DNA of 11,388 nucleotides from Promethearchaeota archaeon (GCA_048938385.1 JBHLMG010000038.1:1-11388); one strand, 5' to 3'; positions 1 to 11,388 are shown, counted from the stretch's first letter. Notes: generated by a model from the letters alone, not told the origin. Made by a program: numbers and translations.

Positions 1-2442
1 GTAATGGGGGGGCAAGACAATTTGTCCTGCCACGCCCATTAAGGGTTCACAGATAAACGCTGCGACCCCCTTTCCTGTGCTTTTTAATTCATTTACTACT
101 GTCAAAATATCAGTGGCGTATTTTTTCCCTGCGTTATGATCCTTCGCTTTGTATTCACCCCGATAGACATCCGGGGTGCGGACTGTGTGGACAAACGCTG
201 GGGCCCCTCGCCCCCCAGGTCCATCGAACTTGTAGGGGCTGATGTCGATCATCGTGCCGGTGTTCCCGTGATAGGCCCCGTTGACTACAATGACATCGGA
301 CTGTCCGGTGTGGGTTCGAGCCATGCGGAGGGCGAGTTCGTTGGCCTCGCTCCCACTGTTGACGAAAAAGCACATTCGGAGAGGCTCCGGTAAGGTAGCA
401 ACCAGGCGCTTGGCGTAGTTAACCAAGGTTTCGTGTAGGTATCGGGTGTTCGTGTTCAAGACGGCGGCCTGGCGATGGAGGGCCTGTACCACCTTCGGGT
501 GGGAGTGGCCCACTTGTGGAACATTGTTGCGTCCGTCTAAATATCGGCGTCCGTCGGCATCGTAGAGGTATTGCATGTACCCCCGCACAATTTGGATGGG
601 TTGCTGATAGGAAAGGCTCAGGGCCTTCCCAATCAACTCACCTCGTGCTGTAAGGATTTCAGGTGTCTCCATGGGTTTGTGGGGGAATCGTTCTAACAGA
701 ATTCCTAGTATCGTGTTCGGATCAGGGCAGATACTCGTCCATGGTCGCCGTTGCCGGGGAAATGCAGCGATGGGAAAGTCACCTTTCCAGTCGAACATGT
801 CGGAGATCAACTGGAACCGAACCGATGGCGGCCAATCCCCGTTCGCTGGGGCGTCGCCGACCTGCCCAATTTGATCCCCTTTGTGGATGTGCTGACCGAC
901 TGTTCGTCCGTCAAGGGAGGTCCGACTCAGATGGGCGTAGAGGGTGTAGAATGTGAGGGCACCATCGTTGACGGTGTGCTCGAGGATAATCGTTGGACCG
1001 TTTCGGCGGAATCCTGGGTTCTCTTGTACGCTGTGAATGACACCGTCTAGCGGGGCGAGAACGGGGGAGCCGGAGGGCGCAAACAATTCCATGCCTAGAT
1101 GAATCGTGCGAGATTCAAAGCCCTCATGCAATGTTGACGGGATCTGCTCCTCTTGGTATACTAACCGTGCTTCGTTGTATCGACCCACTCCTACAGCTGT
1201 CCCATCAGCCTTGAGGCGATTCGCGATGAGTTGGGTAAAGGACGGGGTGTCATGGATGTCAACTAAGGCGCCGTATTCGAGGCTTCCGACGCTGAGGTCG
1301 AAGACAGTGACAGGTTCCGTGCGGATGTCGTAGTGTAGGAGGGTCCCAACCTGGTTTTGATTCTCCTGTAACCAGGTGATGATTTCCTGGCTCTTGGGGT
1401 TGGCAGGGAGTCCACAGGCATCTCGGAAGATGTAGGTAGCCAACCGCGGATGCACCGTTCGTAGTTGCTCTAGCATCTTCCAGGCGGGCTGTTCGGAGAT
1501 GGTGAGGTACTCGTTATCAGGTTCCAGCGTTTTCTGGTACGCTGAAATGGAGACGCTCAGCGCTAGACGCGTGCACACCAGATGAAACAGCAACTCGAGT
1601 TCCAACTCCGTAAGTGGAAACACGGAGTGATAGCCCCCCACCACCTGGGCTGCTGCGGTTATCGGGTCAGGTTTTCCCAGGATGGCGTAGGTGACAGCTA
1701 CCGCGATTTCGAAAACTGAATGGGACCACACCATGTCCCCAAAATCCAGAATCCCAAACTGTAAAGGCGTCGTTGGCTCGTGCCAGTTTACAATGATGTT
1801 GTAGTCATTACCATCGTTGTGAATCACACTGGAACGAAGGCGGGCAAGGTGAGGCTGCACCTGGGCCTCAAACACCGTGAGGAAATGCTTCACCAGCGCC
1901 CGTCGATCCTCGTCTGTGATGTGGCCAAGATACTGCCGGATGGTAACAGGTGCGTGCTTCAAATCCCAGTAGAGCTCTCGCTTCGCAGCAGGATGCGCAA
2001 AGTTGTCCAGGGCTCGGGATATTTGCCCGATGAATACTCCCAATTCTCGCAGGAAATACTCCGAGTGTGGCTTCACCTCCGCCATCACCTTCCCTGGTAG
2101 GTAGGAGACTAACCGCACAAAATGCGAATTGCCAGCAGCATCATCAAACACACCAATCTGCTCACCAGAGCGCGTCGGAATTAGATGTGGACTCAACATC
2201 CCTTCTGCAGTGTTCTGTAAATGCGTCATAGCTTGATTCTGAAACTCTAAGATTTCTCGTTTCTCTGATGTCGCCGCAATCTTGAGCACATACTCCTCAC
2301 CCGCACCCGTGCGTACATAGAAGTTCCGATCCCGCTCGCTCGGTAACTCATGAATCTCTCCCTCTACATCATACAATTCCTTGGCGATGCTGAAGGCTTG
2401 GTCTTCGGTGAACGGGGGACGCAATTGATCTCGACCTGACAC
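1..2442 (-). CDS. Fusion of an APH/hydroxylysine-kinase-like phosphotransferase, a degenerate M23-like domain and a class III PLP aminotransferase (AGXT2L/phospho-lyase-like); runs off the left edge
   Basis: Absent from the ORF track because it has no stop in the window. Hand translation from GTG at 2442 (GAGGTG 7 nt upstream) is open to base 1 (814 codons). Kinase motifs: LPSERDRNF, YVLKI, VIHNDGNDYNIIV, GILDFGD. M23-like segment: GRYNEAR..RTIHLGMELF..YTLYAHL..WPPSVRFQ. Aminotransferase-III motifs: IVRGYMQYLYD..YLD..NNVPQVGHSHP, LNTNTRYLH, FVNSGSEANELALR, AYHGNT, AAFICEP. Confidence 0.92.
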   Translation of the reverse strand, partial: MSGRDQLRPPFTEDQAFSIAKELYDVEGEIHELPSERDRNFYVRTGAGEEYVLKIAATSEKREILEFQNQAMTHLQNTAEGMLSPHLIPTRSGEQIGVFDDAAGNSHFVRLVSYLPGKVMAEVKPHSEYFLRELGVFIGQISRALDNFAHPAAKRELYWDLKHAPVTIRQYLGHITDEDRRALVKHFLTVFEAQVQPHLARLRSSVIHNDGNDYNIIVNWHEPTTPLQFGILDFGDMVWSHSVFEIAVAVTYAILGKPDPITAAAQVVGGYHSVFPLTELELELLFHLVCTRLALSVSISAYQKTLEPDNEYLTISEQPAWKMLEQLRTVHPRLATYIFRDACGLPANPKSQEIITWLQENQNQVGTLLHYDIRTEPVTVFDLSVGSLEYGALVDIHDTPSFTQLIANRLKADGTAVGVGRYNEARLVYQEEQIPSTLHEGFESRTIHLGMELFAPSGSPVLAPLDGVIHSVQENPGFRRNGPTIILEHTVNDGALTFYTLYAHLSRTSLDGRTVGQHIHKGDQIGQVGDAPANGDWPPSVRFQLISDMFDWKGDFPIAAFPRQRRPWTSICPDPNTILGILLERFPHKPMETPEILTARGELIGKALSLSYQQPIQIVRGYMQYLYDADGRRYLDGRNNVPQVGHSHPKVVQALHRQAAVLNTNTRYLHETLVNYAKRLVATLPEPLRMCFFVNSGSEANELALRMARTHTGQSDVIVVNGAYHGNTGTMIDISPYKFDGPGGRGAPAFVHTVRTPDVYRGEYKAKDHNAGKKYATDILTVVNELKSTGKGVAAFICEPLMGVAGQIVLPPHY

Positions 2443-2552
2443 TAGCTTACACCTCTGTATATCACAGCATATGTAATCCAAAAAATACTCTGCTGCAGAG
2501 AGGCTAAGACGAAAATCGAAAGAATCGAGCTAGAAAAAACCAACACTCAAAG

Positions 2553-2594
2553 AAACGCATGCGTCCACCTCAGTCTGGGCCATTACTATGCCCC
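2553..2594 (+). repeat. Intergenic direct repeat copy 1 (most degenerate)
   Basis: aaacgcatgcGTCCACctcagtctgggccattactatgcc; core GTCCAC at 2563-2568, with weak similarity to the extended consensus downstream. Confidence 0.5.
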
Positions 2595-2668
2595 GGAAAT
2601 AAGATACTGTTTCCTTACTAAGAGTTTAATAACTTGATTTCTAGGAGTGTCCGCAAGGTGGACCAAAA

Positions 2669-3247
2669 TTGTCGGAAATACCATCCCAAGATGGGCTGTT
2701 TATTGTTGACCAGCAAAAATGCGTGATCAAAGATTTTGATGCCCCAGGATGGATCCTTGATATCGGGGGCGGCGGTGAAGGGATCATTGGACGCCTTAAA
2801 GGATCCAACGTCATCGCCATCGACATTCGAAAAGAAGAACTCTTGGAAGCCCCACCAGGACCCTTAAAACTCGTTATGGATGCCACTGACCTCCACTTCC
2901 TCGATAACACCTTCGACACCGTTACCGCCTTCTTCTCCCTCATGTACTTGCCCTCCGAATCCCGCCCCCAAGTCTTCCACGAGGTAACCCGCGTCCTCGC
3001 ACCTGAAGGGAAATTTTACATCTGGGATGTCACGATTCCCCCGGTCACCGATCCCACGAAACATTTGTTCGTCGTCCCCCTCACCATCCAACTCCCCGAT
3101 GAGGAAGTCCAAACCGGCTACGGCGTCCCCTGGCAAGGGCGGAAACAATCCCTCAGCGATTATCTCCAACTCGCCCAAAAAACCGGACTCAAACTCGTCA
3201 CCCACCAAACCACCGACCACATCTTCTACATCGAATTCACAAAGTAA
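2669..3247 (+). CDS. Class I SAM-dependent methyltransferase (Methyltransf_11/25-like)
   Basis: Motif I ILDIGGGGEG, then VIAIDI, MDATDLHFLDNTFDTVT and RVLAPEGKFYIWD. TTG start preceded by AAGGTG. Confidence 0.9.
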   Translation: MSEIPSQDGLFIVDQQKCVIKDFDAPGWILDIGGGGEGIIGRLKGSNVIAIDIRKEELLEAPPGPLKLVMDATDLHFLDNTFDTVTAFFSLMYLPSESRPQVFHEVTRVLAPEGKFYIWDVTIPPVTDPTKHLFVVPLTIQLPDEEVQTGYGVPWQGRKQSLSDYLQLAQKTGLKLVTHQTTDHIFYIEFTK

Positions 3248-3269
3248 TCCATGACCAAATCACACTCCA

Positions 3270-3300
3270 ATAAACGAAAAAGGTGGTGTCCATCCCAACA
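3270..3300 (+). repeat. Intergenic direct repeat copy 2
   Basis: ATAAACGAAAAAggTGGT-GTCCAtCCcAAC. Shares the upstream ATAAACGAAAAA with the copy at 7058. Confidence 0.75.
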
Positions 3301-3502
3301 GTATAGGTCAACATCTCTCCTCCTTCTCCGACGCTCTTGAAAGGGAGATTTTGCCTTAGATGAACTTATGAAAGGGGCATTGGATTTTTCTCAAAAATTA
3401 GCTTTGCATGTGCGTACAGACCAATGCGTTCTTTTATTCGCTGACAAATGTCTACAGCACACATTCTAGCGCCGATTGCTCCTTTTCAGCGGGGTTAATG
3501 GT

Positions 3503-4312
3503 ATGAAAAAAGCGTATGCAGTAGGCTTACTTCTACTCGGATTACTCATTGCCTTCTCTCCTACACCGATCACGCGCGGGCTCCAACTCTCTTCATCTAC
3601 CAAACAGCTCCCCGTTTACATCGATCTGGTACCTAATTGGGATTTCGCCGAGATTGAATCGGGTGGGTGGGACGGAAACGACCATAATGCCAGCAAACCC
3701 ACCTTCTGGTACTTCACCGGTGATACCACTGGTCCCAAAGAACAATACCGAATAATCAACGATACCGCAAACGGTGGTGATGTCCACACCCTGTTCCTCC
3801 AACCTACCCACGCCAACCAAGAACACACCGTTATGTTCTGGCAAGACTTCACCACCCTCGACATTAACCAGGTCTCCATCCAGTACCGCAGTTGTGCCAC
3901 GGGTCCCACAGCCCTCATCCTGCTCTACGGGCTCAACGCTAGCATCACACCCGACACGCCCCTTCCCAACGGCACCATTCCCTACCTCACCACGCTTCAT
4001 CCCTCTCTCAACGAAACTCCTGGCTATTGGTCCAACTACACCACCGCCACCATCTCCCTATCCAACCTCCCCAACACCTACCACCACTACCGCATCCACT
4101 GGCAACTCATCGAAGCCCCCGGAAAACCCGACGCCCAACTATACATCACCTACTGCCGTGTTACCGGACCCCAACTCCTACTCCCTCTCATCTGGCCCCC
4201 AATCGCAATCCCAATCATAGGCCTTGTCGCCGGCATTATCGTTTCCATCATCATGCTCCTCGTCTACCTCAAAAAAACAGGGAAACTCCACTTACCCAAA
4301 CTAAGCCGATAA
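3503..4312 (+). CDS. Hypothetical secreted, membrane-anchored surface (glyco)protein
   Basis: ATG at 3503 (in frame with track ORF 3476) gives signal peptide MKKAYAVGLLLLGLLIAFS. C-terminal TM helix IAIPIIGLVAGIIVSIIMLLVYL followed by basic KKTGK. Several N-x-S/T sequons (NAS, NDT, NAS, NGT, NET, NYT). Confidence 0.8.
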   Translation: MKKAYAVGLLLLGLLIAFSPTPITRGLQLSSSTKQLPVYIDLVPNWDFAEIESGGWDGNDHNASKPTFWYFTGDTTGPKEQYRIINDTANGGDVHTLFLQPTHANQEHTVMFWQDFTTLDINQVSIQYRSCATGPTALILLYGLNASITPDTPLPNGTIPYLTTLHPSLNETPGYWSNYTTATISLSNLPNTYHHYRIHWQLIEAPGKPDAQLYITYCRVTGPQLLLPLIWPPIAIPIIGLVAGIIVSIIMLLVYLKKTGKLHLPKLSR

Positions 4313-4324
4313 CACGACCACATT

Positions 4325-4364
4325 GAGGGCGTCCACCCTAACCTGGCAATTCACCTGCCAAGAA
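4325..4364 (+). repeat. Intergenic direct repeat copy 3 (long form)
   Basis: gagggcGTCCACCCTAACCTGGCAATTCACCTGCCAAGAA. Aligns over ~35 bp with the copies at 8713 and 10706. Confidence 0.85.
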
Positions 4365-4381
4365 CATCACATGTCCAATTA

Positions 4382-5590
4382 CTAATGGTCTAAAGAAGTC
4401 CTGCGGCGATAGACAACGATTACCAAGACAACACAGGCAATTATGATGGCTGTACCACCCGCAATCACAGGTCCATAAGTCAGCAGCATCGAACCCCAAT
4501 CCGTTAATGTCAAGGGGTGTTGGGCAAGCACCCAGTTCATCAAGAAAAGAGCGGCCGCCCAGTTTTCCTCGCAGGTGGGTAAGATTTCCACTTCAGGTAA
4601 CTCAAAGTAGGTCAAATCGAACTCTGGATTGTTTGGACGAAGTTCGATCGTGAGACCCGGAATCCCTTTTTCCTCATAAACCCAATCTCCCATATCACCC
4701 ACCGTCAGGTATGTTGCACCGCCCTGTACGACGGTATACTCTTCCCCATGGACCGCATGAATCGCTTCGGCCATTCCCTGCGACAACGCCTCCATGCTAG
4801 CGGCATCAACGGGGGGGTCGGGTGTGTAGCCCCAAGGGTAGGCAATCATTTGCCAGTAGCTATGATAACTGACCACCGCCTGGAAGTCATTCTCCACATC
4901 CAAAATCAAATCGCGCATTGCCACCGTTTCTGGCTCTGAAAACGCCGAGGGGCCCCAATAGGTCTCATCAATGGGATTGGGCGACCCATCCGCAATCCCC
5001 TCCTCAACATCTTGCCCCCAATTAGATGTCCCATAGTTTCGGTTCAGATCTACACCGAATGTCCCATCACTATTATTCACGCGATTCTTTCGCCAATACC
5101 GTGAATTCTCCCCCGGACTCTCGGGGGACTCAAAATACGCCCGACAGAATTCAAGACCATCAGGGTTCACGACGGGCACAATCCAAATCTCGCAATTATC
5201 AACAAACCTTTTGACGACAGGGTCAGAGTCATACAACTCCACCAGCTTCCACGCAAAGTAGTAGGGGACTTCTGCTGAAATCCACTCCCGAGCATGATGC
5301 AGCCCCACAAAGAGAACATCCGGCTCATGCCGCTCCTTGATATTCGGATAATCACTGATCTTAATCGCCCAGATGGGGCGTCCCTCCACGCTATACCCCA
5401 CAGCATCCAGCCACACTATCGGTGAACTACTCAATGCTAGAAGCCCTGCCACAAACTCTGAATATGTATGGTATTCCGTCCACTGAACCGGAACCAAGGA
5501 CACGTTAGCCCAAACCCTTGGCGGCCTTACCAAGACGCACAACGCCATCACTAACACAGCAACTACACAACTACTCTTCAACCGCCTCAA
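4382..5590 (-). CDS. M14 zinc carboxypeptidase (carboxypeptidase T-like), secreted and C-terminally anchored
   Basis: HHAREW (HxxE Zn ligands), VNPDG, WRKNR, GVDLNRNY, FSEPET, SYHSY (third Zn ligand) and TIELRP (catalytic Glu). N-terminal signal; C-terminal TM followed by RRR. Confidence 0.93.
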   Translation of the reverse strand: MRRLKSSCVVAVLVMALCVLVRPPRVWANVSLVPVQWTEYHTYSEFVAGLLALSSSPIVWLDAVGYSVEGRPIWAIKISDYPNIKERHEPDVLFVGLHHAREWISAEVPYYFAWKLVELYDSDPVVKRFVDNCEIWIVPVVNPDGLEFCRAYFESPESPGENSRYWRKNRVNNSDGTFGVDLNRNYGTSNWGQDVEEGIADGSPNPIDETYWGPSAFSEPETVAMRDLILDVENDFQAVVSYHSYWQMIAYPWGYTPDPPVDAASMEALSQGMAEAIHAVHGEEYTVVQGGATYLTVGDMGDWVYEEKGIPGLTIELRPNNPEFDLTYFELPEVEILPTCEENWAAALFLMNWVLAQHPLTLTDWGSMLLTYGPVIAGGTAIIIACVVLVIVVYRRRTSLDH

Positions 5591-5683
5591 AACAACACTT
5601 CCAATAAAATATCAACGCAGAAGCGCACTTCTAGTTAAACGCAATAGCCCTTCTGAACGATAAAAAATACCCGATACAGGACC

Positions 5684-5713
5684 AAACAAGCGGTCGTCCA
5701 CTCCAGCTCACGG
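5684..5713 (+). repeat. Intergenic direct repeat copy 4
   Basis: aaacAAGcGGTCGTCCACtCcagctCACGG; core at 5696-5701. Confidence 0.75.
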
Positions 5714-5895
5714 AACACATACTGAAGTTGCACGTATATTCTGGCTTGTTAATCGCCATTTTCTTGCGTTTCGAAAGCGTATTTGCACTTTCCACCAAAT
5801 ACCTGAAAGGGACGGGTCAATTCATCCAATTCGGTATGTAGAAATATCATGGACCACAAAGGCTTACCAATGGTTTCATCGTGGGAGGTGATTCA

Positions 5896-6111
5896 ATGGC
5901 AAGAGTATATCGCATTCTCCTGCAAATCCTCGCAGTTTTGAACCTAGTGGTGGTTAGCCTGAATTTAGTGCTTCCCCTCGTCGGCCTTCCTGTAAATGGA
6001 ACGCCAACCCCCGCCCAAGCAATCCTAATCTACATCTATTTCGGAACCTTCACCTGGCCGATATTAACTGGGCTCATTCTTCTCCTTAATGTCTTCAAAC
6101 CTAGTGACTGA
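5896..6111 (+). CDS. Small two-TM hypothetical membrane protein (71 aa)
   Basis: Strong RBS GGAGGTGAT just upstream of ATG 5896. Two hydrophobic stretches: ILLQILAVLNLVVVSLNLVLPLVGL and AILIYIYFGTFTWPILTGLILLL. Confidence 0.72.
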   Translation: MARVYRILLQILAVLNLVVVSLNLVLPLVGLPVNGTPTPAQAILIYIYFGTFTWPILTGLILLLNVFKPSD

Positions 6112-6196
6112 ACGACTGGACTCCCCGGTGAAGGCACTCCTTGACAATCACTCATCGAAAAACGAGAACAGACAAAACCCATTACAGAGCCTACAG

Positions 6197-6234
6197 AAGT
6201 GCTAGTCCACACCAGCAGCTCGTAAAGCACCTGC
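6197..6234 (+). repeat. Intergenic direct repeat copy 5
   Basis: AAGTGcTaGTCCACaCcagcagctcgtaaagCACCTGC; core at 6205-6210. Distal CACCTGC is shared with copy 3. Confidence 0.62.
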
Positions 6235-6288
6235 AGTTCAGGCATGCAATCCTAGGCTTTAATTGAAAGCTGGTAATTTTTACGAGTT

Positions 6289-6918
6289 CTACATCTTTTC
6301 CAGTTCCCCAGTGGGTGGATACAGCGCGAGTTTTCTCTCAATCTCATAGATTAAAGGAATGATTCCTTTGAGATCCCCAATGGCCTTAAGACAGCCTTTG
6401 GCAAAAACCTCGTCTTCAAACTGGTCATAGAGTGAACTAAAATAGGATCCGGAGTATTCCGCGTCTTTGAAATTACTGAAAAGACCTCTTGATGTGGTGA
6501 GCCCCAAATAGGTTTTATTTAGCAGCATCATTAAGGAGACCGACATACCACTAACAAAGTCGAGATTCCCGTATTCATCGACGGGACCATCTTTGCCTTC
6601 CAGAAACGCGGCTAGCGCCTTCTTCCGCTCCTTTTTCCATTTCGTAGGATCTTTCTCCCACTCATACAGCGTAAAGTAGGCAGGAAGCCCCAACATCATT
6701 TCTTCCGCCAAGGCTTCTGGCAGCTGCCTTTGCAGTTGACAGACCCCAGGATAAATGTCCCGCATCAAGGCTCCAAACTTCTCCACCCCTTCTTGCCGAT
6801 CTGGATACTCCGCCTCCAAAAACGCCTTTATCTTCGGCACATAATCTCTGGCAAAAAACGCCACCAAATACGAAACTTTGTCCGGCTTCACTCGTTTCCC
6901 CTGCAAAAACTGGACCAA
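6289..6918 (-). CDS. Hypothetical soluble protein (209 aa)
   Basis: Open frame with TTG start 5 nt after GGAGGTG. Plausible helical composition; no motif recognised. Confidence 0.75.
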   Translation of the reverse strand: MVQFLQGKRVKPDKVSYLVAFFARDYVPKIKAFLEAEYPDRQEGVEKFGALMRDIYPGVCQLQRQLPEALAEEMMLGLPAYFTLYEWEKDPTKWKKERKKALAAFLEGKDGPVDEYGNLDFVSGMSVSLMMLLNKTYLGLTTSRGLFSNFKDAEYSGSYFSSLYDQFEDEVFAKGCLKAIGDLKGIIPLIYEIERKLALYPPTGELEKM

Positions 6919-7057
6919 ACGAACACCTCCATCTGCGATTAATCGAGCACCACTCCGTACTCACTTAAATTACTAATGGCTTAGCACATTTGATTTGGAT
7001 CATCATAGTCAGGAACCACCAAGATGCAACAACTCCTCGTAGCGAACACTGACACAA

Positions 7058-7101
7058 ATAAACGAAAAATGGTCGTCCACCCAAGCAGTCTAACCAATTC
7101 A
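7058..7101 (+). repeat. Intergenic direct repeat copy 6
   Basis: ATAAACGAAAAATGGTCGTCCACCCaagcagtctaacCAATTCA; core at 7075-7080. Confidence 0.85.
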
Positions 7102-7151
7102 TAGAAGCTTAGACCTGCTCAAATGTCGGGTTTACAAATTTTCACTTCAGC

Positions 7152-7164
7152 TTATATACTCCGT
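7152..7164 (+). promoter_or_regulatory. Putative archaeal TATA box plus shared flank (TTATATACTCCGT) upstream of the beta-helix gene
   Basis: TTATATA box. The same 13-mer occurs on the minus strand at 10877-10889. Confidence 0.5.
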
Positions 7165-7232
7165 CTCATTTGTAAACACCTCTCTTCACACCCAAATAAA
7201 TCCCTCTTCCAGCTACCCGAAATCGCATTATC

Positions 7233-8639
7233 GTGACCAAGAAGGTAGCGATAACTCGAGGGATATATGCATTGAAAATTCATAACTCAAGCAGGTATGT
7301 GGTCATAACCGGGTTGTTCTTGGTATTGGCCATCTCACTGTTTACGAGCAGTCTCACAATCGCTGCACCATTCGAACAACGCATCACTCCGTCAAATGAC
7401 ATCACTGGTACCACCGACTGGCAAAACCTGCAAACCGCCTTCAACGCGGCTTCAGGAATTCCTGGTGCGGTAATCGAACTCCAAGCCGGAACATACTACA
7501 TTAATCAGGCTGTTGTAATCAAAGATTTCGTCGGCACATTCAAAGGCGCGGGTATGGAACAGACGATAGTTCAGACGCCGGGTGGAGATTATCTGTTTCC
7601 CAAAGTGACTGAAGGTCCGGTCTGGGAAGCCCCCGGCATGTTCATCTTCTACTACGACCAATTAGGCGAAGCGCACACACCAGCGCATCTTACCCTCTCC
7701 GACATGACTTGGCACGCTATCGGTCAAACTGAAGGTTGGGTAACTCATGTGCCTTTCCTCGTTGACCAATTTGCCTACATAAGCGCTGTATATGGGCGGT
7801 ATACCGGAATTGAAGACGATGAAGTGTCATACATCAGCACAACTGCGGAACGAATGCAATTTCTGGGTGACTCGTATCCAGAAGGCAAACTTGGACCCGT
7901 GAATGTCATCAATGGATTCATCATGGAACCCGAATTCTTTGCTACCGACGATGATCCACCAGAATTCTATACTGACAAACAGCTCTGTGGAACCTACACT
8001 TGCATCAGTTCGAAATTCCAAAACATCCTCTATGCCTACAACACCCTAATGATCACTGACTCCAGTGTCACAGTTGGTGGAAAACCCCAATTCCAAAACA
8101 CCTTCATTGACTGTGCTACAGGAGTTGACCTCTTTAACTTAGACAACTCCGAAGCAGAAGTGTCATACTCTGAAACCTTTAATTCCAGCGCGGTTATCAT
8201 CGAACTGTATGCACCTGGCCTGACCCCATCAACTTTCACCATCAAACACAACACCATTCGACAACGCCCATCAGCATGGTTTGCGGGCGTAGAAGTCTGG
8301 AGCTATGGCCTCTATTATGGACAAGAAAACATCGATACTCTCAACATCACACAGAACACCATCATCTCGGAAAGCCACAATCCACCCTATGGTCCCATCT
8401 TTTGTTTCGGTGCCCATAACACCAACATTACCAACAACATGATTCAAGGAACTGGAGAATCCGGAATCTTCCTTGGTGGACTATCAACTGGCTGCTACAT
8501 CCGTGGAAACAACCTCAAACACTACGACGCAACAGCCCAAGACATCTACCTGGGATCCGCTACCAGCCATTGCACCGTCATCCTCGGGGCAACCGACACA
8601 ATCACAGACGATGGAACAAACAACACCATCCAAGGCTAA
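7233..8639 (+). CDS. Secreted right-handed parallel beta-helix (pectin-lyase-fold/NosD-like) protein
   Basis: N-terminal hydrophobic segment; cap motif DWQNLQTAFNAA..VIELQAGTYYIN..FKGAGMEQTIV; repeated TIKHNTI, NITQNTI, NITNNMI and YIRGNNL rungs. The true start may be TTG at 7272. Confidence 0.8.
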   Translation: MTKKVAITRGIYALKIHNSSRYVVITGLFLVLAISLFTSSLTIAAPFEQRITPSNDITGTTDWQNLQTAFNAASGIPGAVIELQAGTYYINQAVVIKDFVGTFKGAGMEQTIVQTPGGDYLFPKVTEGPVWEAPGMFIFYYDQLGEAHTPAHLTLSDMTWHAIGQTEGWVTHVPFLVDQFAYISAVYGRYTGIEDDEVSYISTTAERMQFLGDSYPEGKLGPVNVINGFIMEPEFFATDDDPPEFYTDKQLCGTYTCISSKFQNILYAYNTLMITDSSVTVGGKPQFQNTFIDCATGVDLFNLDNSEAEVSYSETFNSSAVIIELYAPGLTPSTFTIKHNTIRQRPSAWFAGVEVWSYGLYYGQENIDTLNITQNTIISESHNPPYGPIFCFGAHNTNITNNMIQGTGESGIFLGGLSTGCYIRGNNLKHYDATAQDIYLGSATSHCTVILGATDTITDDGTNNTIQG

Positions 8640-8712
8640 ACCCACTCATTGGTGCTTCCAGAGAGAAGCACCCCCGCACCCTTTTTACTCCTGAAACTCA
8701 AGCACTATATAC

Positions 8713-8756
8713 CGAAAAAGTGGTCGTCCACCCTAACACGGCAATTCACCGTGTTA
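8713..8756 (+). repeat. Intergenic direct repeat copy 7 (intact core, with a perfect 8-bp inverted repeat)
   Basis: CGAAAAAGTGGTCGTCCACCC-TAACACGG-caattca-CCGTGTTA; core GTCCAC at 8726-8731, hairpin at 8734-8756. Confidence 0.9.
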
Positions 8757-8858
8757 ATTGATCGATGACAGCTCCCGGTTTTAGTACCGTTGTATTCCTC
8801 ATATGAGCTGTACTGTCTTCTGTCCCGTTCTTATAGAGACGCTGGACAAAATGGAGTT

Positions 8859-10664
8859 TTACGATGTGCAAATCTGGAGGCAGTGTTGTGGACAACGATG
8901 GACGCAAGCATTACAATTGATACACCTTTGGGAGTGGGCTGGGTTAGCTTTGTGTCTCGCAGTATCTAACTGGAAGATATTCATCGGACAGACTTGTACA
9001 CAGACTCCACATCCATTACACTGTTCGGCATCCTGAGCAATTTGTCCATAGGGTTGAAGGGGATACCTCCCCGTAAAGAATGGCATTTGTGAATGCCCTC
9101 GCTTGTACAGCAACTGACCCAAATCGCTGGGTAAGATTGGCGTCATTCCATTCAAGTCCACACCCAAGATTATCACTACACTAATCGTGACTAGCAGTTC
9201 CCACAGCAACCCCAACAAGCTCCCCGTTGTATAAAGCGCAACGAGTAGGACTCCGCTGATGGCGCAAATCCCATATACCAGCGTTTTGACGAAACCTGAT
9301 CTGCTGGGGAGGTAGGGTATAAGAAGATAAGCACCATAAGTGAGCAGCCAAATGATTCCCAGGGTTAGGAGAAGCCTCGTGGGCGCAAAAATCAGGCTGA
9401 GCGGGACCGCACAGAGCGAAATCATAATAGCATAGAGGCTTGCCATTTCTAAGCGCCGCGACACCGGAAACCGTACGGTTCGCATGCACTCGGTTTTCTT
9501 CGCTTCGTTCTTCAAATAGGCTGGGATGTCCGCGGCATACACGGGACCAAACTGGGCTGTCCATCCCGTCTCCTGCTTAATCACATCGGGATCAACGCCT
9601 GGTGCCGCAAGTTGCGGAAGAATCAGACCCCGGTGTCGTACCAAATTATTGATACCACTCAGCTTTATCGCCGCGATAACAGAGTGTGCCGTAAAATCAC
9701 CCCCACACGCTGCACACCACACATTGATGCCCCGCGTTGGAGCCACCAACACATAACAATCAATCTTCGCTTGTTGGAGAGTTTTCAGAACCCGGCGAAT
9801 GGTCAGATCGTAATTGCATGTGACTAGCACGGGGCTTTGAGGCGAGGGCTGACCCACAGGGAGAAGTCCGGGCGAAGTAGCAACTGCCACCCAGCGAAAA
9901 ATCGTTTCCGCCACATACTTGAGTCGTGATCCCACCTGGACTGTCGGATACGAAGACTGTGATTCTGGGGGTAGTTGCTCTTGGTGGGGTTTCGTTACAA
10001 TCAGTAATAACAACGAGTCTAGTAGATATCGCTTCTGAACCAGGAACTGAAACCCGAACTTTCTGAGCTTTTCTTCAAGATTTTTCACGCGATGGGTGGT
10101 GGTCTGACTCAGGATAAAAGTGAACACCGTAAGAGGTACGCGTAAAACATAATAGGGAAGCATTTTTCGTATCGAACGGGGACGGACTTCATCCACGATG
10201 ATCAGGCGTCCATCCGGGCGAAGCAGACGCCTTGCTTCACGAAGCAGGTAGGCCTGTTCCACATCAGACAATTCGCTCAACACTAAGGTGGCAGTCACCA
10301 CATCAAAGGAGGCATCAGGAAACTGATCCGTCTCCGTCAAATCCATCTCCCGAAACTGCACCCTATCATCCAACTTCTCCTGCACTGCTTTGGCTTGAGC
10401 TAACGCAATCATAGCAGGTGACACATCAATTCCAATCACCTGCGCCCCTTTCCGCGCACAAAGCCGCGCCAATGTACCAGTCCCACTTCCAATATCAAGA
10501 ACATGGTCAGATGACCCAACGATTTTATCAGCTATCCACTGTTTAAGAATTGCATCAACACCCAATGTGAGAACCTTAAGGCCCTGATCATACCGCCACG
10601 GCGCTGACTCCAGCAACTTCATGAGCACAGCAGTTGACGCAACTAACGCCTCCTGGTCATCCAC
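8859..10664 (-). CDS. Fusion of a class I SAM methyltransferase, an HgcA/CdhD-like corrinoid-binding domain, TM helices and a 2x[4Fe-4S] HgcB-like ferredoxin (HgcAB-like fusion)
   Basis: MTase: VLDIGSGTGT, GIDVSPAMI, FDVVTATLVLSEL, LLRPDGRLIIVDE. HgcA-like: SPVLVTCNYDLT, TRGINVWCAACGG (cap helix), LILPQLAAPGV, FGPVYAADIPAYL, MRTVRFP. About 4 TM helices. Ferredoxin: CNGCGVCVQVCP and CINCNACVHRCP. Start codon uncertain. Confidence 0.9.
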   Translation of the reverse strand: MDDQEALVASTAVLMKLLESAPWRYDQGLKVLTLGVDAILKQWIADKIVGSSDHVLDIGSGTGTLARLCARKGAQVIGIDVSPAMIALAQAKAVQEKLDDRVQFREMDLTETDQFPDASFDVVTATLVLSELSDVEQAYLLREARRLLRPDGRLIIVDEVRPRSIRKMLPYYVLRVPLTVFTFILSQTTTHRVKNLEEKLRKFGFQFLVQKRYLLDSLLLLIVTKPHQEQLPPESQSSYPTVQVGSRLKYVAETIFRWVAVATSPGLLPVGQPSPQSPVLVTCNYDLTIRRVLKTLQQAKIDCYVLVAPTRGINVWCAACGGDFTAHSVIAAIKLSGINNLVRHRGLILPQLAAPGVDPDVIKQETGWTAQFGPVYAADIPAYLKNEAKKTECMRTVRFPVSRRLEMASLYAIMISLCAVPLSLIFAPTRLLLTLGIIWLLTYGAYLLIPYLPSRSGFVKTLVYGICAISGVLLVALYTTGSLLGLLWELLVTISVVIILGVDLNGMTPILPSDLGQLLYKRGHSQMPFFTGRYPLQPYGQIAQDAEQCNGCGVCVQVCPMNIFQLDTARHKANPAHSQRCINCNACVHRCPQHCLQICTS

Positions 10665-10699
10665 TCCAACATTAGGCTTCCTAATAGAAAAAAGCTAGC

Positions 10700-10860
10700 A
10701 AAAGCAAAGTGGTCGTCCACCCCACCACGGTAATTAACCTGCCAGGAATAATGCACCCGGACTCCTTACCGCACATACCGTCCAAAGCGACCCCGAAGGG
10801 CCGCTTCAGAAGCAATGAATTCCTAGGAGGTGATCCTGTAGTCGTGGGTTTGTTTAGAAG
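10700..10860 (-). ncRNA. Candidate structured non-coding RNA or long 5' leader (unknown family)
   Basis: On the minus strand: TTATATA box at 10889-10883; GGATCACCTCCT at 10836-10825; 9-bp stem AAGCGGCCC-TTCG-GGGTCGCTT at 10806-10785, whose C(UUCG)G loop and G-U pair only work on this strand; possible further stems (GGAC..GTCC or CCGGG..CCTGG); terminal hairpin GGGTGG-ACGA-CCACTT followed by T-rich sequence. Boundaries are estimates. Confidence 0.5.
10706..10748 (+). repeat. Intergenic direct repeat copy 8 (intact core; 3' end of the candidate minus-strand RNA)
   Basis: AAAGTGGTCGTCCACCCcACCACGGtAATTaACCTGCCAGGAA; core GTCCAC at 10715-10720. Confidence 0.9.
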
Positions 10861-10889: not shown

Positions 10890-10931
10890 CCGCATACCTC
10901 TAATCAATCAACGACGATGGAAGGTGATAAG

Positions 10932-11388
10932 ATGCCTCTCAGCTTCGGAATTCAAATTGGGAATTACTTCGGTTTTGATTATGATACGATAAAGGAAATC
11001 GCACTGACGGCAGAAAAAATTGGCTATGACGCGTTGTGGATTAGCGACCACTTCTTCATTGATAAGAACCCCGCAACGACATCGTGTCTAGAAGCGTGGA
11101 CTGTTCTCTCCGCCTTGGCATCCATCACCAAGACACTTCGGTTGGGCACCTTGGTGACCTGTAACGGATTTCGATATCCCACGGTCTTGGCTAAAATCGC
11201 TGCAACCGTTGATGTGATTTCGAATGGTCGATTGGAGTTTGGCATTGGTGCGGGCTGGAAAAAGAATGAACACGTTAACTACGGGATTCCTTTCCCAAGT
11301 CTCAAAGAGCGAATGGATCGATTGGAAGAATCCGTACAGATAATCAAGAAGCTGTGGACTGAGCCAAGTGTCAGTTTTGATGGAGTAT
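10932..11388 (+). CDS. LLM-class (probably F420-dependent) oxidoreductase; runs off the right edge
   Basis: Absent from the ORF track because it has no stop in the window. ATG 10932 follows AAGGTGAT and translates as MPLSFGIQIG..AEKIGYDALWISDHF..LEAWTVLSALASITKTLRLGTLVTCNGFRYPTVLAKIAATVDVISNGRLEFGIGAGW..ERMDRLEESVQIIKKLWTE. Confidence 0.93.
   Translation, partial: MPLSFGIQIGNYFGFDYDTIKEIALTAEKIGYDALWISDHFFIDKNPATTSCLEAWTVLSALASITKTLRLGTLVTCNGFRYPTVLAKIAATVDVISNGRLEFGIGAGWKKNEHVNYGIPFPSLKERMDRLEESVQIIKKLWTEPSVSFDGV

Follow-up and report, generated by a model that had tools for sequence, protein, structure and literature searches.

Genomic islands of Prochlorococcus built by tycheposons arise through tandem accretion at the 3′ ends of tRNA and tmRNA genes (bioRxiv 10.1101/2020.12.28.424599). 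Rows of small unrelated gene cassettes, each bounded by one polar copy of a site, are the hallmark of integron arrays and of integrase-less CALINs, including archaeal ones (Ghaly et al. 2022, PMC9668308). Short recombination sites also flank the small gene modules of Acinetobacter plasmids (pdif modules) and occur in the archaeal XerA/dif system, whose 28-bp site has two 11-bp inverted arms and a 6-bp spacer (PMC2958812). Aloposons (PMC8813620), giant-gene transposons at tRNA sites, were also considered and set aside as not comparable. Here we analyse a gene array from an Asgard archaeon for which we found no published description. In mechanism its nearest counterpart is the tandem accretion seen at the ends of tRNA genes, and it resembles an integron in layout, not in parts. 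Among known prokaryotes, Asgard archaea are the nearest relatives of eukaryotes, and how genes are gained and shuffled there is an open question.

The window, that is, the whole stretch of DNA analysed, is the 11,388-nt contig C14 of a 2.48-Mb Promethearchaeota archaeon assembly (G000; 90% complete), which we compared with 14 congeners and with metagenome contigs (L series). It carries nine open reading frames in the orientations - + + - + - + - +, and each of the eight gaps between them holds one repeat copy. The genes are as follows.

1-2481, minus strand: gene 1, truncated at the contig end; fusion of phosphotransferase (APH), M23 peptidase and class-III aminotransferase
2669-3247, plus strand: gene 2, SAM methyltransferase; orthologues in the G013 and G001 arrays
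3476-4312, plus strand: gene 3, 278-aa protein of no known family; orthologues in G014, G008 and G007, with other neighbours
4382-5590, minus strand: gene 4, M14 zinc carboxypeptidase
5881-6111, plus strand: gene 5, 76-aa protein; orthologue in G014:C26
6289-6918, minus strand: gene 6, 209-aa protein of no known family; orthologues in G008, G001, G012 and G003
7233-8639, plus strand: gene 7, beta-helix protein; missing in G012:C116 from between the orthologues of genes 6 and 8
8859-10664, minus strand: gene 8, fusion of methyltransferase, CdhD-like domain and 2x[4Fe-4S] ferredoxin
10917-11387, plus strand: gene 9, truncated at the contig end; luciferase-like monooxygenase

Plus-strand GTCCAY cores lie at 2563, 3288, 4331, 5696, 6205, 7075, 8726 and 10715. 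The hexamer alone is unspecific, with 29 matches over both strands of the window; a 65-nt profile finds the same eight window copies, all on the plus strand, and elsewhere in the assembly matches only on contigs C42 and C39. Hexamer positions and profile together confirm the original prediction of one same-strand motif copy in each of the eight gaps. Its copy spacings (725, 1043, 1365, 509, 870, 1651 and 1989 bp), its single gene per unit and its near-palindrome GTGGTCGTCCAC, with 4-bp arms GTGG/CCAC flanking TCGT, were likewise correct.

Sequence comparison identifies the repeats as orphan 3′ tails, copied from the transcription unit of 16S rRNA and lying on the minus strand, where each copy finishes with UGGGGUGGACGACCAC followed by a U-run. 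Tandem integration at RNA-gene 3′ ends, which the original prediction had mentioned in passing, thus proved the right identification, and its idea of an unexplained motif of a new kind was not borne out. The copies, with their scores under an out-of-sample profile built on 42 copies from other genomes only, are listed below.

10700-10844, minus strand: full-length orphan 16S tail (copy 10715; 24.6 bits), matching positions 2-149 of 151 in a profile of authentic 16S tails (101.9 bits, E 6e-30)
10824-10844, minus strand, within the preceding relic: 16S 3′-end remnant (last ~12-21 nt)
10709-10724, minus strand, within the same relic: core; the other parts are a ~105-nt trailer with a UUCG hairpin and a U-run
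8708-8764, minus strand: tail relic, core with about 35 nt of trailer (copy 8726; 24.3 bits)
7055-7099, minus strand: tail relic, core with a short diverged trailer (copy 7075; 20.3 bits)
6186-6241, minus strand: decayed tail relic (copy 6205; 10.1 bits)
5676-5733, minus strand: decayed tail relic (copy 5696; 13.7 bits)
4316-4367, minus strand: decayed tail relic with core GGGCGTCCAC (copy 4331; 11.2 bits)
3268-3317, minus strand: strongly decayed tail relic, borderline (copy 3288; 7.1 bits)
2544-2598, minus strand: possible oldest relic, by position and orientation (copy 2563; 5.1 bits)

The top score in 50 shuffled control windows was 7.0 bits. Judged by this profile, six copies (10715, 8726, 7075, 5696, 4331 and 6205) are securely significant, and sequence similarity offers borderline support for copy 3288; copy 2563, whose score is not above chance, may be a relic given its position and orientation only. 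Authentic 16S tails in G006:C71, G008:C48 and G016:C21 align collinearly with the full-length relic, and because this relic runs on to 10844 the repeat extends beyond the motif first described, which itself stands.

Position and base pairing suggest what the tail does in the intact unit. In archaeal pre-rRNA, the helix formed by leader and trailer is cleaved by the splicing endonuclease. In G016 and on G000:C7 the leader segment GUCCACCUCA complements the repeat core, with a 10-bp pairing (L019, G000:C7), and the core sits 95-110 nt downstream of the 16S 3′ end, so both position and complementarity fit the trailer strand of a processing stem. We read the first part of the core as the trailer strand, which at the foot of this stem pairs with the 16S leader; the GUGG-ACGA-CCAC hairpin with its U-run is probably a terminator. 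Leader-relic duplex energy, tried as a test of former function, did not discriminate: shuffled trailers paired almost equally well, an effect of the C/A richness of the leader and the G/U richness of the trailer. Although the core matches a processing-stem strand, only the 16S-adjacent copy can serve as one, and the displaced copies lack a strand close by to pair with; a promoter or terminator role for the array copies, already doubted in the original prediction, does not fit.

The link to 16S is direct in relatives. Contig G014:C26 (27.7 kb) from a congener holds array, live tail and 16S gene together, with the gene 5 orthologue about 2 kb from 16S and two tail copies ahead of the authentic tail. 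G016:C21 carries a full SSU rRNA at 5951-7493 on the minus strand (1399 bits), and its last repeat core lies at 5834-5857. The order 16S, tail, cassette, relic recurs in G006:C71, G008:C48 and metagenome contigs L045, L046, L057, L066 and L069. The authentic-tail profile gave 93 matches, whose 3′ boundary falls nearly always at positions 144-150 and whose 5′ reach varies. The G000 assembly lacks most of its own 16S gene (G000:C7:1-145 is the 5′ end), so there the link between C14 and 16S is made by analogy with the congeners and not by contig. Rfam returned no match at E<=1 for the window, C42 or C39. The tail of a protein-coding gene had also been considered as the source; inspected by eye in six frames, the consensus had no consistent stop codon, and the idea was dropped after the 16S link emerged.

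Within G000 the repeat is found on three small contigs only, and it is clustered in 12 of the 14 congeners. One copy in every window gap could point to a general regulatory or REP-like intergenic element, or to contigs mis-binned from an organism in which the motif occurs genome-wide; we give this explanation next to no chance. Genome-wide occurrence, which the original prediction had said would count against it, was not seen: confinement to C14, C42 and C39, with no copy in the other 2.46 Mb, rules out a genome-wide REP-like element. The copies also sit between divergent, convergent and tandem genes alike, and against mis-binning, the same contigs in relatives run into conserved chromosome at one end and into 16S at the other. 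We consider it likely that the window belongs to the interior of an accessory-gene island of 30-40 kb built immediately behind the single 16S gene. An MFS transporter gene at the end of G000:C38 had been weighed as the anchor of the array; no repeat follows it, and it marks the far, old flank of the island and not the insertion end.

The array shares four features with islands at tRNA and tmRNA gene ends. An intact RNA gene, here 16S rRNA, stands at one end of the island. Partial 3′-end copies are scattered in a single orientation: among 70 copies on 13 contigs, none runs against its own contig's orientation. Older insertions are displaced outward by newer ones and their remnants degenerate, seen here as a drop in relic score the farther a copy lies from 16S (11 contigs, mean Spearman rho 0.52; permutation p 0.0002). 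Finally, accessory cargo varies between close strains. Unlike those islands, the target here is the tail of the 16S unit (stem base, terminator and sometimes the last 21 nt of 16S), the units are mostly single genes of 0.5-2 kb, and no element of the arrays examined holds an integrase or replication module.

The locus extends the principle of RNA-gene tails as landing pads from tRNAs to ribosomal RNA. It ties a large (30-40 kb), fast-turning accessory island to the 16S rRNA gene, indispensable to every cell, several species have its gene packets in common, and no classical mobile-element enzyme was found in the arrays. Arrays next to 16S break metagenome assemblies, which helps to explain both the frequent absence of 16S from such genomes and the difficulty of binning small repeat-rich contigs.

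Comparison between species shows cassette orthologues in changed order and with changed neighbours. Identical gene order in relatives had been named in advance as counterevidence; instead we observed gain, loss and shuffling at the repeats. Gene 3 and the left half of copy 4331 are orthologous in four genomes, and the gene 3 orthologues have the left half and core in common and a different right half. A 210-nt homology of C14 with C42:1326-1535 ends at 7082 (core+2), and in one cassette that is 96.5% identical between two strains, divergence begins directly after GTCGTCCACCC. In these alignments, exchange between arrays is confined to the ~24-bp conserved core AAAARTGGTCGTCCACCCC. The exchange point can be placed no finer than this identical block, which leaves site-specific and short-homology recombination unseparated.

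Whole tails move as well. An L045 relic is 91% identical to another species' live tail and 73-76% identical to L045's own, which suggests that tails travel with incoming DNA; in G006 and G005, gene 9 and the full-length relic travel together (91% nt identity), and close strains have exchanged live-tail types. Circular or cassette-skipping junctions were not seen in the assembled contigs of public runs, which are uninformative on this point, being contigs and not reads; loose ends at 7082 and 10706 in them are paralogous C42 copies. The view that the copies are recombination scars or sites bounding the single-gene cassettes of a gene-capture array is upheld by the reshuffling and by exchange points at the core.

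The locus is a gene-capture island, because the array abuts an intact 16S gene in relatives, cassettes are reordered, exchange falls at the core and relics decay. In the mechanism we propose, new DNA packets of one or a few genes, with their own promoters and in either orientation, would enter beside the live 16S tail. Entry would occur by recombination between the live tail and a tail copy on incoming DNA, which we infer to be circular or linear, and each entry would displace one tail copy outward, where decay would set in. Taken as a whole, the 16S-tail origin of the eight motifs and the accretion of packets at the live tail are well supported, and we hold them to be likely. Candidates for the acting enzyme are short-homology recombination by host machinery, a lone XerA or a nuclease-like gene described below. 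Among about 45 array genes scanned we found no integrase, transposase or reverse transcriptase, as the original prediction of a window free of recombinases would have it, and the enzymatic step of the mechanism is left unsupported by the arrays' own genes.

Like integrons and CALINs, the island has a fixed insertion end and cassettes that are common to several species and reordered. Its parts differ. Integron attC sites are imperfect inverted repeats (R''-L''...L'-R') that form a single-stranded hairpin with a GTTRRRY core, whereas here the GTTRRRY/RYYYAAC pair is absent from the repeat consensus, and single-strand DNA folds of three copies, on both strands, gave only the 4-bp hairpin and local stems (z -0.8 and -0.6 for the long copy). 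IntI, with its specific extra domain, adjoins integron arrays and was not found here. Integron cassettes are mostly promoterless, co-oriented and Pc-driven; those of the island have their own promoters and run in either direction, with promoter-like boxes conserved upstream of gene 3 and a TATA box upstream of gene 9. The site itself is a copy of a host RNA gene tail, and distal sites decay rather than being kept. The sole PF00589 match in G000, on C26, is of XerA type (NF040815, 269.7 bits vs a cut-off of 220) and falls under the integron-integrase cut-offs (154 vs 265; 104 vs 435). The integron-like parts first proposed, attC fold and IntI, are therefore not borne out, the only tyrosine recombinase being XerA-type and elsewhere in the genome.

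An integron-style process could still operate with other components. In that case a dedicated site-specific recombinase, XerA or one not recognised, would act in trans on the ~24-bp core as its active site; cassettes would be excised as circles and re-inserted at any core, with the live tail in the role of attI. We regard this as possible but doubtful. No other part of the repeat is nearly as well conserved as the core, whether inside a genus or across genera; some junctions consist of a core without trailer, so that the core alone seems sufficient, and each exchange point inspected falls at the core. The assembly carries one XerA-type enzyme, its sole tyrosine recombinase; this enzyme, and the small gene modules bounded by short sites, recall Xer/dif modules. 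Core conservation is, however, equally explained by constraint on the live tail (processing stem and terminator), and the farther a core lies from 16S the more it has decayed (5-7 bits at 2563 and 3288), which argues against their selection as sites. The core also lacks the 11-6-11 Xer layout (PMC2958812): by eye it has no dif-like 11-bp arms, only 4-bp inverted arms (GTGG/CCAC) around a 4-nt centre, flanked by an A-run and CCCA. Unlike Xer/dif, all copies here are co-oriented and the site derives from an rRNA tail, and xerA is not linked to the array. In the 90%-complete G000 assembly we found no serine recombinase, reverse transcriptase or Y1 gene, and for IS110-type recombinases a single sub-threshold match only (16.5 bits vs a cut-off of 29).

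Complete relics invite an RNA-based reading. In the three families inspected, their first base lies no more than about 2 nt from that of the 21-nt 3′ exon of 16S, and they end at the U-run; this exon starts in the helix-45 loop, where the genus carries an insert of 32-100 nt. Such relics could represent RNA freed when the splicing endonuclease cuts a helix-45 intron (3′ exon plus trailer to the terminator), then ligated to other RNAs and copied into DNA. We judge this very improbable: beyond the lack of a reverse transcriptase in the 90%-complete assembly, promoters and genes pointing both ways in cassettes misfit transcript copies, and most relics are shorter and have other 5′ ends.

A 419-aa nuclease-like gene lies between relic and live tail, adjoining 16S, in G006, G008, L069 and L070, with protein identity down to 43%; it occupies the 16S-proximal slot in at least four divergent lineages. 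The protein carries an invariant motif of D...ExK type, and in fold it comes closest to MspJI (Foldseek probability 0.92), NucS/EndoMS and R.BspD6I, the matches being weak over the whole protein (TM about 0.2). Pfam, NCBIfam and PDB sequence searches gave no matches. A homing-type process could follow if this enzyme cut tail/helix-45 sequences without the gene, donor repair then copying gene and cargo, swapping tails and building the array; its position, motif and fold matches and the swapped live-tail types of close strains are in keeping with this. We nevertheless find it improbable, as the fold matches are weak, the protein has no family assignment, the gene is absent from the proximal slot of G016, G014 and L045 and was not found in G000, and it could be an ordinary restriction-type cassette. 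Unlikely, and to be held tentatively, is a dedicated integrase-free Asgard gene-capture system that uses conserved transcription-unit ends, here the 16S tail, as landing pads. Its two joints would be the junction of the helix-45 intron and the base of the processing stem, and an enzyme not yet recognised, for example the product of the nuclease-like gene, or the RNA-splicing machinery would drive it.

One further observation concerns the proximal slot itself: a conserved nuclease-like gene held there sits uneasily with the newest cassette always entering beside the live tail.

The window belongs to an island of gene cassettes that is anchored at the tail of the 16S rRNA gene. The motif GTCCAY, which the original prediction placed once in every intergenic gap, is present on the plus strand at all 8 named positions, one per gap, among nine ORFs (orientations - + + - + - + - +, the outermost two truncated at the contig ends) that make up one entire contig of 11,388 bp (C14) in a 2.48-Mb, 51-contig assembly (G000, 90% complete). 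The hexamer alone is unspecific, with 29 matches in the window, and a 65-nt profile recovered precisely these eight copies there, all on the plus strand. Scored with an out-of-sample profile of 42 copies from other genomes only, the copies with cores at 10715, 8726, 7075, 5696, 4331 and 6205 reached 24.6 to 10.1 bits, and those at 3288 and 2563 reached 7.1 and 5.1 bits; against a maximum of 7.0 bits over 50 shuffled windows, six copies are thus secure and two are weak. A 12-mer resembling the core, CTGGTCATCCAC (10653-10664, 7.9 bits), lies 45 nt to the left of the true one, inside the 5' end of the gene 8 coding sequence; it is probably a chance match. Across the whole assembly, the 65-nt profile matched C14, C42 (4 copies) and C39 (2-3 copies) only (next best E = 0.57), and a second profile, from authentic 16S tails, returned the same three contigs, so the repeat is not a motif of most intergenic regions genome-wide.

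Among relatives, the repeat is clustered on one or a few contigs in 12 of 14 same-genus genomes and is also found in some of a sister genus; none of 70 copies over 13 contigs runs against its own contig's orientation. In the consensus, GTGGTCGTCCACCCCA comes after an A-run, and to the right of it lies a more variable part with a few sub-types. Orthologues of genes 2, 3, 5, 6, 8 and 9 occur in relatives' arrays in different orders and with different neighbours, each in an unchanged orientation with respect to the repeat. In one relative (G012:C116), a single repeat separates the orthologues of genes 6 and 8, making gene 7 a one-cassette difference; gene order is therefore not identical between related genomes. 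We also observed 65-82% matches of relatives' 16S-array cassettes in larger contigs of G000 without the 16S-tail repeat (C17, C2:172-173 kb, C32, C12, C16 and C34), which may be paralogues or cassettes common to other arrays of this genome.

In the window, as in relatives' contigs, repeat quality declines leftward (mean Spearman rho 0.52 over 11 contigs, permutation p = 0.0002), so the insertion end should lie on the right. In the sister genus (G016:C21), the reverse complement of the 16S rRNA 3' end begins about 95 nt beyond the rightmost repeat core (5834-5857), and the complete archaeal SSU rRNA that Rfam detects there occupies 5951-7493 of the minus strand (1399 bits). Within the genus, a 27.7-kb contig (G014:C26) carries the array, then a complete tail, then the 16S gene, and the same junction is found in G006:C71 and G008:C48. 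Five metagenome contigs (L045, L046, L057, L066 and L069) have the order 16S, tail, cassette, relic, cassette, relic, each relic being an orphan copy of the tail. G000 itself retains the 5' end of the 16S gene at C7:1-145, and the rest of the gene is unassembled. Past the conserved 16S 3' region, L066:11400-11464 does not match archaeal 16S and is probably an assembler join via a conserved rRNA stretch.

On the minus strand, the repeat is the terminal part of the transcription unit of 16S. A U-run comes after the core, UGGGGUGGACGACCAC on that strand, and the first ten bases of the core pair with the leader segment GUCCACCUCA in G016 and G000:C7 alike; this complementarity puts the core at the base of the processing helix between leader and trailer, and the small hairpin with its U-run is probably the terminator. 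A whole-tail profile from authentic tails, spanning 151 positions (21-nt 16S end, ~105-nt trailer, core and U-run), gave 93 matches, nearly all ending at positions 144-150 with variable 5' reach. One window copy is full length:

10700-10844, minus strand: full-length tail copy (whole-tail profile, 101.9 bits)
10824-10844: relic of the 16S 3' terminus, part of the full-length copy

This copy contains the UUCG hairpin of the trailer; compensatory changes in this hairpin are seen between species, and the copy accounts for a structured RNA with the repeat as its 3' end that had been proposed separately.

Two strains (L066 and L061) are 96.5% identical over one cassette and diverge directly past GTCGTCCACCC; a third copy, a paralogue, diverges within the core. 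Within G000, a 210-nt homology (84%) between C14:6873-7082 and C42:1326-1535 stops two bases past the core. The C42 segment (L001:1326-1535) is a truncated paralogue of the gene 6 5' end plus its upstream region, and at the core it joins another tail relic, a long one. For gene 3, four orthologues have a common derived variant of A-run and core on the right, and the sequence past the core is not common. The breakpoints in these three comparisons indicate that A-run and core travel with the left-hand gene (in window orientation) and that sequence right of the core is part of the next unit; some junctions have a core without any trailer. Exchange is thus restricted to the ~24-bp block, and since a crossover is unplaceable within that identical block, a site-specific enzyme and short-homology recombination are equally compatible with the data.

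A second joint lies at the live end, where the 16S genes of congeners carry an insert in the helix 45 loop, 21 nt before the 3' end, leaving a 21-nt 3' exon:

L032:640-671 (G006:C71): insert of 32 nt
L042, about 1329-1425 (G008:C48): insert of about 100 nt
L045:83-181: insert of about 100 nt

The insert folds as a hairpin extending helix 45 and is absent from the 16S of the sister genus (G016); the longer inserts of G008 and L045 are possibly two inserts each. In the three families of complete relics inspected, namely L045's first relic, the one at C42:1525 and the one preceding gene 9, the start falls no more than about 2 nt from the first base of the 3' exon. Two close strains have near-identical 16S up to the insert (46-82 nt compared) and differ in inserts and tails, and the relic of one is 91% identical to the other's live tail versus 73-76% to its own, so tails move with incoming DNA and the live tail is replaceable. 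The two tail types occupy swapped positions in the close strains L045 (181-334 and 1033-1178) and L046 (85-230 and 1547-1689), the live tail of one being the first relic of the other, so in these events the functional 16S tail itself was replaced.

The extent of an island could be followed in G006. Positions 1-2363 of its 32-kb contig C9 are 90-91% identical to the right end of G000:C38, which is an MFS transporter gene, and the remainder of C9 is cassette-like. The right end of C9 overlaps L066 (99.3%), and L066 in turn runs through five more relics to the live tail and 16S. The island in that species is thus about 40 kb long, with the conserved transporter gene at one end and 16S at the other. 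In G000 the order would, by analogy, be the C38 end, then C14, C42, C39 and unassembled parts, then 16S and C7.

No recombinase, transposase or reverse transcriptase was found among the nine window genes and about 35 further array genes. The 90% complete G000 assembly encodes one tyrosine recombinase, which exceeds the archaeal XerA cut-off and falls short of the integron-integrase cut-offs, and has one sub-threshold IS110-type match; serine recombinase, reverse transcriptase and Y1 transposase were not found in it. In G006, G008, L069 and L070, at least four divergent lineages, the slot between relic and live tail, adjoining 16S, holds a 419-aa gene that belongs to no known family:

L042:1603-2862, minus strand: 419-aa gene
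L032:1-471: 419-aa gene
L066:9906-11165: 419-aa gene
L069:922-2181: 419-aa gene
L070:1093-2346: 419-aa gene

Its proteins, with identity down to 43%, have an invariant D...ExK-type nuclease motif; 12 homologues were found, all on short contigs. The predicted structure (mean pLDDT 81.8) gives weak best fold matches, led by the restriction endonuclease MspJI and including NucS/EndoMS and R.BspD6I. This nuclease-like gene, not found in the G000 assembly, is a candidate actor and could equally be a restriction-type cassette.

The observation behind the original prediction was confirmed, and its interpretation as an integron-like cassette array was right in part: a gene-cassette island bounded by repeats stands, with a layout like that of an integron, whereas every testable defining part of an integron (PMC9668308) is absent. 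Its anatomy is that of tandem accretion at the ends of tRNA/tmRNA genes, as in tycheposon islands, where partial 3'-end copies mark successive insertions and older elements degenerate (bioRxiv 10.1101/2020.12.28.424599). It differs in that the target is the 16S tail, the units are small and an integrase is absent. We found no published description in work on Asgard mobile elements (PMC8813620, PMC11529989), a review of archaeal tyrosine recombinases (PMC8371274) or a limited keyword search; as far as this search reached, the 16S-anchored island extends the RNA-gene-tail landing pad principle to a variant not previously described.

Two window genes are fusions. Gene 1 (1-2481, minus strand) is a single frame of >827 aa that combines an aminoglycoside-type phosphotransferase with an M23 peptidase and a class-III aminotransferase, and no orthologue was seen among the relatives' arrays examined. 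Gene 8 (8859-10664, minus strand) is an unusual fusion of a SAM methyltransferase, a CdhD-like (corrinoid/CODH delta) domain and a 2x[4Fe-4S] ferredoxin, in that order, and this fusion is kept in G008 at 75% identity.
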